Positions 20,760 to 21,010 of a DNA stretch of 29,617 nt are shown one piece after another. The stretch lies in the sequence record PV287706.1, one strand, 5' to 3'. The notes below the pieces were generated by a model, which searched no databases, was not told the origin of the DNA, and saw only the letters and a list, made by a program, of their open reading frames with translations. The stretch's first letter is position 1. Each line of letters opens with the position of its first letter. This stretch comes from Escherichia phage Midge. The translations under genes were made by a program, and so were the position numbers.

Positions 20760-21010
20760 TCTGCCGCCATCAAGTAAAACTCCGTCGCCAATTTGCCGCC
20801 ATCGCCAATAAAAAAGGGGTTAGCATCACGCTAACCCCTTGTTTTCTACAAGCTTTCGGATGTTGCGAAAGCGCGTTATTAGTTCAGACGCTCCTAATAA
20901 CACCCCATTCAAAACAACAACTTACCATATAAAACAACTAGTTAAGTTAATTTTTAATGCAGTGAATTGTAGTGTTATGCAACCTCTGCCGCCATATTGT
21001 CGCCAACATA
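20760..21010. other. attP: Candidate attP region between ogr and int
   Basis: Three direct copies of TGCCGCCAT (20762-20770, 20794-20802, 20987-20995), a perfect hairpin ggggttagc-atcac-gctaacccc (20816-20838) and an inverted repeat GTTATTAG...CTAATAAC (20875-20901); this is where attP lies in P2/186. Confidence 0.45.

Follow-up and report, generated by a model that had tools for sequence, protein, structure and literature searches.

A probable attP of a PSP3-like, 186-type P2-family phage that recombines with the 3′ end of rplS

The attP of phage lambda is the paradigm of a site used by a heterobivalent integrase, and its core identity spans both core half-sites. The attP of phage P2 reportedly consists of a core with two arm-type direct repeats on each side, together with IHF. 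For phage 186, the arm sites are described in the sequence record by the words 'consensus = YAYCGCCAYTY; 3 sites to left of attP and 2 sites to right' (GenBank NC_001317), and the attP is the subject of work by Reed, Dodd and Egan, as cited in PMC7498355. The arm-site consensus of the 186 type, tgccGCCActt, is unlike that of the P2 type, tgTGGaCa (PMC3448106). Integrases of the 186 type tend toward tRNA and tmRNA targets, which is a tendency and not a strict criterion. Within the PSP3-like group, the PsP3-like prophage phiSPU2 is listed at yfiN-rplS, the same locus as the one described here, in Table 1 of PMC6449608, and the field for the integration site of PSP3 is blank in Table 1 of PMC3448106. 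A literature search on rplS as an integration site of P2-like phages gave no match, and the sequence records of PSP3, SEN1, SI22, SW9 and RCIP0057 carry no att or arm-site annotation.

We analysed a stretch of 29,617 nucleotides from Escherichia phage Midge (PV287706.1; the window), which we read as a P2-family phage genome in its virion or circular form. Open reading frames and Pfam searches gave the gene order gpD (19271-20437), an Ogr/Delta zinc-finger gene (20515-20733, + strand; PF04606, Ogr_Delta), a rightward terminator and, on the opposite strand, int (PF24624, Int_N, and PF00589, Phage_integrase). Beyond int lie a DUF2511 gene, a gene for a 186-type CI repressor and an early gene for a 123-aa protein. 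The order of gpD and ogr followed by an opposed int is common to the window, PSP3, SEN1, SI22 and 186. At the DNA level the ogr-int interval is 80-94% identical to that of Klebsiella phage RCIP0057 and of Salmonella phages SI22, SW9, PSP3 and SEN1, all of the genus Eganvirus. The attP of these five phages is homologous to that of the window and shares with it all five arm sites, the hairpin, the core and int. A preliminary description, made from the letters of the sequence, had placed a candidate attP between the ogr terminator and int. The core and the recombinant junctions map there, the arm motifs flank the core, and we consider it very probable that positions 20762-21006 (about 245 bp) are the attP of a PSP3-like (Eganvirus), 186-type P2-family temperate phage that inserts at the end of rplS. 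The features of the region are listed in Table 1.

Table 1. Features of the attP region and of int, in window coordinates; distances of arm sites are from the crossover
Feature	Position	Strand	Remarks
ogr terminator, left boundary of attP	20732-20759	+	stem 20732-20751 and T-run; kept in relatives
P1, candidate arm-type Int site TGCCGCCAT	20762-20770	+	about -127; TG[C/T]CGCCAT in 11/11 relatives
P2, candidate arm-type Int site CGTCGCCAA	20783-20791	+	about -106; relatives read TGCCGCCAA or TGTCGCCAA
P3, candidate arm-type Int site TGCCGCCAT	20794-20802	+	about -95; 11 bp after P2
Fourth TCGCCAA, probably fortuitous	20802-20808	+	CCAACAA in SI22, TCGCTAA in PSP3, CTCAATA in L098
Phage-borne rplS 3′ end and downstream terminator region	20807-20893 (87 bp)	-	86-88% identical to Salmonella-type host
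Terminator hairpin	20814-20840		11-12 pairs; perfect 9-bp core GGGGTTAGC/GCTAACCCC at 20816-24/20830-38
Candidate left IHF site AAACAAGGGGTTA	20832-20844	-	one mismatch to WATCAANNNNTTR; position of the left IHF footprint of 186
Inverted repeat GTTATTAG/CTAATAAC, candidate core-type Int sites	20875-82/20894-901		perfect 8 bp; 11-bp spacer containing the crossover
Common core TTAGTTCAGACGCTC (15-mer)	20879-20893	-	complement of GAG CGT CTG AAC TAA, the last 4 rplS (L19) codons and stop
Strand-exchange region AGACGCTC	20886-20893		from SA53-3 and PKF8 polymorphisms and the end of host identity
Candidate IHF motif AAACAACAACTTA	20912-20924	+	one mismatch to WATCAANNNNTTR
Candidate IHF motif AAACAACTAGTTA	20932-20944	+	one mismatch to WATCAANNNNTTR; 20 bp from the 20912 motif
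Phased repeats TGCAGTG/TGTAGTG/TGCAACC, candidate RDF sites	20958-20984 (20958, 20968, 20978)	+	10-bp spacing; kept in several lineages
int, tyrosine integrase, 349 aa	20975-22024	-	stop 20975-77; 53% identical to 186 Int
P'1, candidate arm-type Int site TGCCGCCAT	20987-20995	+	about +98; overlaps int codons M-A-A
P'2, candidate arm-type Int site TGTCGCCAA	20998-21006	+	about +109; 11 bp after P'1; overlaps int codons V-G-D

The plan of this region is close to that of 186. In both phages attP lies between the late activator gene (B in 186, ogr here) and int, three arm sites stand to the left and two to the right of the core, and the right-arm distances are similar (+98 and +109 in the window, +101 and +112 in 186). 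In both, a terminator on the - strand separates the core from the left arm sites, and host homology is confined to the int-distal side and ends 1 bp beyond a 7-bp overlap, a probable one in the window. The IHF footprints of 186 on either side of its core have candidate counterparts in the window. The integrases are 53% identical and share the N-terminal W/E/Y motif. [quoted passage not shown] Unlike in 186, the P' sites of the window overlap the int reading frame, and a 123-aa protein of the PSP3 type would take the place of Apl as excision factor (PMC3448106). With P2 the window shares the genome position and general architecture of attP, and some P2-type prophages have both the rplS core and the terminator copy in common with it. 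The arm motif differs from that of P2 (PMC3448106), as does the Int N-domain, which has W/E/Y here and Y/D/R in P2. Similarities to lambda, in terms of candidate sites in the window, are the length of about 240 bp, arm- and core-type sites, IHF bends, an Xis-like factor and a 7-bp overlap. Arm consensus and arrangement are unlike those of lambda, and identity in the window stops at the right edge of the overlap.

To locate the core, prophage junctions of related lysogens were aligned, with K-12 and S. houtenae as empty-site references. Lysogen attL and attR recombine at 20879-20893, which is the shared core and lies inside the interval of the preliminary description and not elsewhere. The longer block at 20807-20893 was matched to the prophage-free locus of Salmonella houtenae and to E. 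coli lysogens. In Enterobacter, attB is exactly the core, with C at 20885 as in the window, giving 15 bp of perfect identity between attP and attB. In about 45 attL junctions, with host flanks of the E. coli, Salmonella, Enterobacter and Citrobacter types, host sequence gives way to phage sequence exactly after TTAGTTMAGACGCTC. This sample includes 40 IMG/VR junctions, whose hosts were inferred from the flanking sequence as E. coli-like, Salmonella-like or other, and four species genomes (Escherichia sp., two Enterobacter and one Citrobacter). When genome contigs were scanned with the attL junction, 4 true lysogens and 4 chance matches in unrelated MAGs were obtained. The attR junctions turn from phage to rplS at the same point as the attL junctions. 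E. coli SA53-3 carries a closely related prophage between yfiB and rplS: its attR reads phage P arm, hairpin, TTAGTTCAGACGCTC and then rplS, and its attL runs from yfiB through the native E. coli terminator and TTAGTTAAGACGCTC into the phage P' arm. Lysogen junctions were also seen in E. coli MRSN346647 and PKF8. The location of the core and the recombinant junctions can thus be read directly from the sequences.

A tRNA or tmRNA was rejected as the integration target, the target being the 3′ end of the protein gene rplS. The preliminary description had mentioned that no tRNA-like 3′ segment was seen; likewise, ARAGORN found no tRNA or tmRNA in the window, and there was no Rfam match with E<=1 in 20300-21300. 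The window departs in this respect from the tRNA-target tendency of the 186 type.

The exchange point within the core, and with it the exact cleavage positions, we infer from polymorphisms between phage and host. SA53-3 has the host A at 20885 in attL and the phage C in attR. Because attL kept the host base and attR the phage base, the exchange should lie to the right of 20885. On the other side, phage-host identity stops at 20893. At the equivalent of that position, a T is found in related phages that also target rplS and show 76-90% identity in the core-binding and catalytic domains of Int. The overlap is most likely the 7-bp AGACGCT at 20886-20892, and PKF8 (TCAG in attR, TTAG in attL) agrees with this placement. 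SA53-3 is the single strongly informative lysogen in this mapping, and the overlap is fixed only within about one base, since an overlap with 20885 as its first base would give the SA53-3 pattern half the time. MRSN346647 is uninformative on the overlap, its attR having a host-like patch beside the core. This patch suggests that exchange occasionally takes place inside the 87-bp phage-host homology, in addition to the crossover by Int. Among the phages, the window and RCIP0057 have C at 20885, giving the Enterobacter-type Leu codon CTG, and PSP3 and SI22 have A.

Several details of individual junctions were recorded alongside. In the attR of MRSN346647 (L160, about 270-300), the patch gcgaatc-TTAGTTA to the left of the core resembles the rplS flank of another host (compare L133). 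The rplS stop codon was changed from TAA to TGA in three lysogens (attR of E. coli CX21, Ecol_545 and PKF8; L164, L165 and L166), and the rplS Leu codon was changed from CTT to CTG by the insertion in SA53-3 (L003, 37781-37795). On insertion, the native E. coli terminator is swapped for the phage copy and the end of rplS is rewritten with phage sequence.

The preliminary description had also pointed out an 8-bp inverted repeat at 20875-20901 that could flank the crossover core, and this repeat is indeed perfect and brackets the mapped exchange region. GTTATTAG and CTAATAAC could be C and C', a pair of core-type Int sites. We hold this reading tentatively and with somewhat less than even confidence, the alternative being that the repeat is partly fortuitous, with a left half that is host-derived rplS stop-codon sequence. 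The bracketing is exact and would be expected by chance with a probability of about 4e-4 (simulation), and most relatives have the pattern GTTnnTAG...CTAnnAAC (6/8), in which the inner TAG/CTA is nearly invariant. On the other hand, apart from the window, agreement at all eight positions is limited to a few close relatives (L119, L143, L148 and L157). Agreement is 5-6/8 in most relatives and 3/8 in PSP3 and SEN1, and the perfect repeat is missing from PSP3, SEN1, SI22, SW9 and RCIP0057. The centre of the repeat, 20888, lies one to two bases off the overlap deduced from the polymorphisms and implies an overlap at 20885-20891, which would take in the C/A polymorphism. Furthermore, the left arm is host-derived, as the complement of the rplS stop codons, and the right side of attB (TTTGATAC) has no similar half-site.

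The perfect 9-bp hairpin at 20816-20838, which had been noted earlier as usable as a bidirectional terminator, is present and can be extended to 20814-20840. Read on the - strand, its stem of 10-12 bp is followed by a U6 tail, as in a canonical intrinsic terminator (z = -3.1). The + strand form is weaker and passes a loose terminator filter, so that the hairpin is terminator-like on both strands, strongly on - and more weakly on +. Compensatory stem changes were found in the hairpin of relatives. The hairpin falls within the host-homologous block, and 186 has a 'predicted terminator of lysogenic operon' at the same position. Judged by its sequence, the hairpin is in the main a phage-borne copy of the host rplS terminator. 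As the phage carries the last rplS codons together with the terminator copy (20807-20893), rplS would be left intact and terminated at attR. In the lysogen, the phage hairpin would end the rpsP-rimM-trmD-rplS operon at attR, and the displaced host terminator at attL would stop leftward int transcription. In the phage form, the hairpin itself would stop leftward int transcription as well as any read-through from ogr. Such an arrangement would explain how a prophage can insert harmlessly into an essential ribosomal-protein operon.

[quoted passage not shown] TGCCGCCAT occurs exactly three times in the whole window, at 20762, 20794 and 20987, always on the + strand and within 234 bp. About 0.52 copies are expected per window, and the Poisson probability of at least three copies in a given 251 bp is about 1e-8. 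The preliminary description had counted three direct copies between ogr and int; the number stands, and the third copy is located in the last codons of int. It had also stated that two of the copies are followed closely by TCGCCAA, which has to be corrected: all three are, with TCGCCAA at 20785, 20802 and 21000 and gaps of 14, -1 and 4 nt. A better fit than these pairs is given by five direct copies of the 9-mer TGYCGCCAW/CGTCGCCAA, all on the + strand and in an 11-bp phase, three to the left of the core (20762, 20783 and 20794) and two to the right (20987 and 20998). [quoted passage not shown]

Conservation of the motifs was observed in both arms. For the P arm, 11 sequences were aligned, taken from five phages, five E. 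coli attR and one IMG/VR attR. The conserved blocks are TG[C/T]CGCCAT (20762), [C/T]G[T/C]CGCCA[A/T] (20783) and TGCCGCCA[T/C] (20794). Variation is found in the 12 nt that separate the first block from the second and in the bases that follow the third. In the P' arm, TG[C/T]CGCCA[T/C] and TG[T/C]CGCCA[A/C], 11 bp apart, are kept in about 40 attL sequences. Every close relative examined therefore has the repeats in its attP, attL or attR. Their earlier interpretation as integrase arm-binding sites gains support from the 186-type consensus and from this conservation, and we regard them as probable arm sites.

It might be argued that the 9-mers are not Int sites at all and represent chance repeats or, for the third copy, a by-product of int coding, with the true arm sites elsewhere. 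The third TGCCGCCAT and its partner do lie inside the last int codons, TCGCCAA by itself is not rare (11 copies in the window against 6 expected), and its copy at 20802 is not conserved. We nevertheless consider this explanation very improbable. All three copies of TGCCGCCAT cluster within a short interval at the probability given above, the motif bases are kept while neighbouring bases vary, motif, number and spacing are as in 186 (PMC3448106), and the repeat co-varies with the Int N-domain, as described below. Moreover, the P' sites persist when they are detached from int: they are retained in SA53-3, where 1.27 kb of cargo separates them from the gene, and in L020/L116. The 13-aa tail of Int that overlaps the P' sites is absent from 186 Int. 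Since the sites are kept when detached from int, and 186 Int lacks the overlapping tail, coding constraint does not explain them. Part of the conservation of P'1 and P'2 could still be protein-driven, given their location within coding sequence.

Cargo genes of unassigned function lie between the P' sites and int in SA53-3 (L003, 7595-8828) and in L020/L116, and E. coli E2348/69 carries cargo between ogr and the P arm (L004, 645-1367). Positions next to the attachment site appear to act as cargo hot spots, with the arm sites left intact.

To relate the repeats to the integrase, we compared Int N-termini with the adjacent repeats. The window Int has the N-terminal motif GKWLCELYPNG and 186 Int has GGWICELYPNG (shared pattern GxWxCELYPNG, with W11, E14 and Y16), so that the N-domain carries the W/E/Y residues of the 186 type and not the Y/D/R of the P2 type. 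A set of 80 IMG/VR Int homologues (L011-L090) was then used, the repeat being taken as the tandem one, of 11-bp spacing, that adjoins the int 3′ end. Throughout this set, Int residues 13-16 track the adjacent repeat: E/Y occurs with CGCCA, Q/F with TGCCA and D/R with TGGACA. Written out as residues 13-16, xExY goes with TGYCGCCA, AQIF or AQVF with TGCTGCCA, CDFR with TGTGGACA-like repeats, TDFL with TGTTGTCA and CDFY with TGTAGTCA. On comparative grounds, this co-variation argues strongly for the 9-mers as the sequences that the Int N-domain binds. Compared with the window Int, the CDFR integrases have an identity of only 44-53% in residues 1-55, against 83-90% for the core-binding and 79-90% for the catalytic domain, and one of them is confirmed at rplS, as L035 and L091 share one contig. 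The CDFR pattern indicates that the arm-binding module has probably been swapped together with its sites.

These data also bear on the possibility that the 9-mers are operators of another regulator, such as CI sites like FL/FR of 186, or sites for Ogr or the excision factor. The region would then be mainly a bidirectional terminator spacer, and attP would be confined to the core. Such a role would find a parallel in the CI sites that 186 has outside its switch region, and it would suit a hairpin that is terminator-like on both strands. However, the motif follows the Int N-terminus even in the presence of other CI or RDF gene types, P2-type arms accompany CDFR integrases at the rplS core that the window shares, the pR-pL region lacks the motif, and a layout of direct repeats 11 bp apart flanking a core is the hallmark of arm sites. 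A role as operators thus seems highly unlikely, and binding by the Int N-domain remains our preferred reading of the 9-mers.

The junctions at rplS were further compared across the P2 family. Motif-variant junctions comprised the attR sequences L091-L111 and E2348/69 (L004, about 1440-1590). At the attR junctions, four or five arm motifs occupy one position, upstream of the same terminator copy. Since different arm motifs are found at the same rplS core and terminator copy, rplS would be a shared insertion hot spot. E2348/69 was ruled out as an empty attB, because a P2-type prophage sits at the same site. Arm motifs other than that of the window, in P2-family prophages at the rplS core with the terminator copy, were TGTGGACA (P2-type, for example in E. 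coli E2348/69), TGTAGTCA, TGTAGGC and TGTTGCCAA/TGTTGACAA.

A broader proposal, in which our confidence is about evenly divided, is that the rplS 3′ end is a hot spot of the P2 family where integrases with an 81-90% identical core-binding and catalytic body carry swapped N-domains and matching arm sites, in at least five motif classes (TGYCGCCA, TGCTGCCA, TGTGGACA, TGTAGTCA and TGTTGTCA), with a recognition code and tandem lysogeny. If true, it would provide a residue-to-base code for the arm-binding domain, in which E14/Y16 reads CGCC, Q14/F16 reads TGCC and D14/R16 reads TGGAC. Tandem lysogeny at one site would also be possible, with hybrid attP-like junctions (L037 and L053). A single target served by integrases with interchangeable arm-recognition modules may help in engineering integrase specificity. 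Two attP-like junctions with mismatched arms were seen: L037 has 186-type left and P2-type right arms, and L053 has TGTAGTCA left and 186-type right arms. Most simply, these would represent two different prophages in tandem at rplS.

Candidate accessory sites complete the region. Three matches with one mismatch to the IHF consensus span 113 bp. The left one stands where 186 has its left IHF footprint, and the right-hand pair corresponds in position to the right footprint. This pair is kept across lineages, and a perfect WATCAANNNNTTR is present in L068, L073, L076 and L077. The phased TGCAGTG-like repeats occupy the place of the five Apl sites in 186 and may be sites of the excision factor (RDF). 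For arms, IHF and RDF alike, we infer protein binding and assign sites by consensus, conservation and analogy with 186. The first early gene (23350-23721) encodes the 123-aa protein, which is 77-98% identical in PSP3, SI22 and SA53-3. It has no Pfam match, and the PSP3-type protein has been called a singleton (PMC3448106). This protein is presumably the excision and switch factor, a putative assignment.

Taken together, the sites would allow a mechanism in which Int acts as a heterobivalent tyrosine recombinase. Its N-domain would bind the five direct TGYCGCCAW sites, with P1-P3 lying toward ogr and P'1-P'2 toward int, and its core-binding and catalytic domains would act at the core (20879-20893). 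IHF-type bends at the candidate sites (20832-44, 20912-24 and 20932-44) would bring arm-bound Int to the core, and strands would be exchanged with the identical rplS 3′ end in an overlap of roughly 7 bp within AGACGCTC (20886-20893).

What is new here is the base-level anatomy of the site and not the kind of element, as insertion at the rplS locus is already on record (PMC6449608). The analysis provides attP, core and arm coordinates at base level for the PSP3-like Eganvirus group, the records of which carry no att annotation, and exact junction strings for calling prophage boundaries in Enterobacteriaceae. To the paradigm of 186 and P2 it adds little in concept, and the site can be regarded as a well-built but ordinary example.

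Two minor observations concern the neighbouring early and lysogenic regions. Upstream of the gene for the 123-aa protein, TGCAC occurs twice with 10-bp spacing (23305 and 23315). This block is conserved and resembles the TGCAGTG repeats of attP, and in the pR-pL region, where it lies, it also contains promoter and RBS. Between int and cI, a DUF2511/YebY-family gene (22047-22457, - strand; orf28 of PSP3) is located in the lysogenic operon and is possibly a lysogenic-conversion gene.
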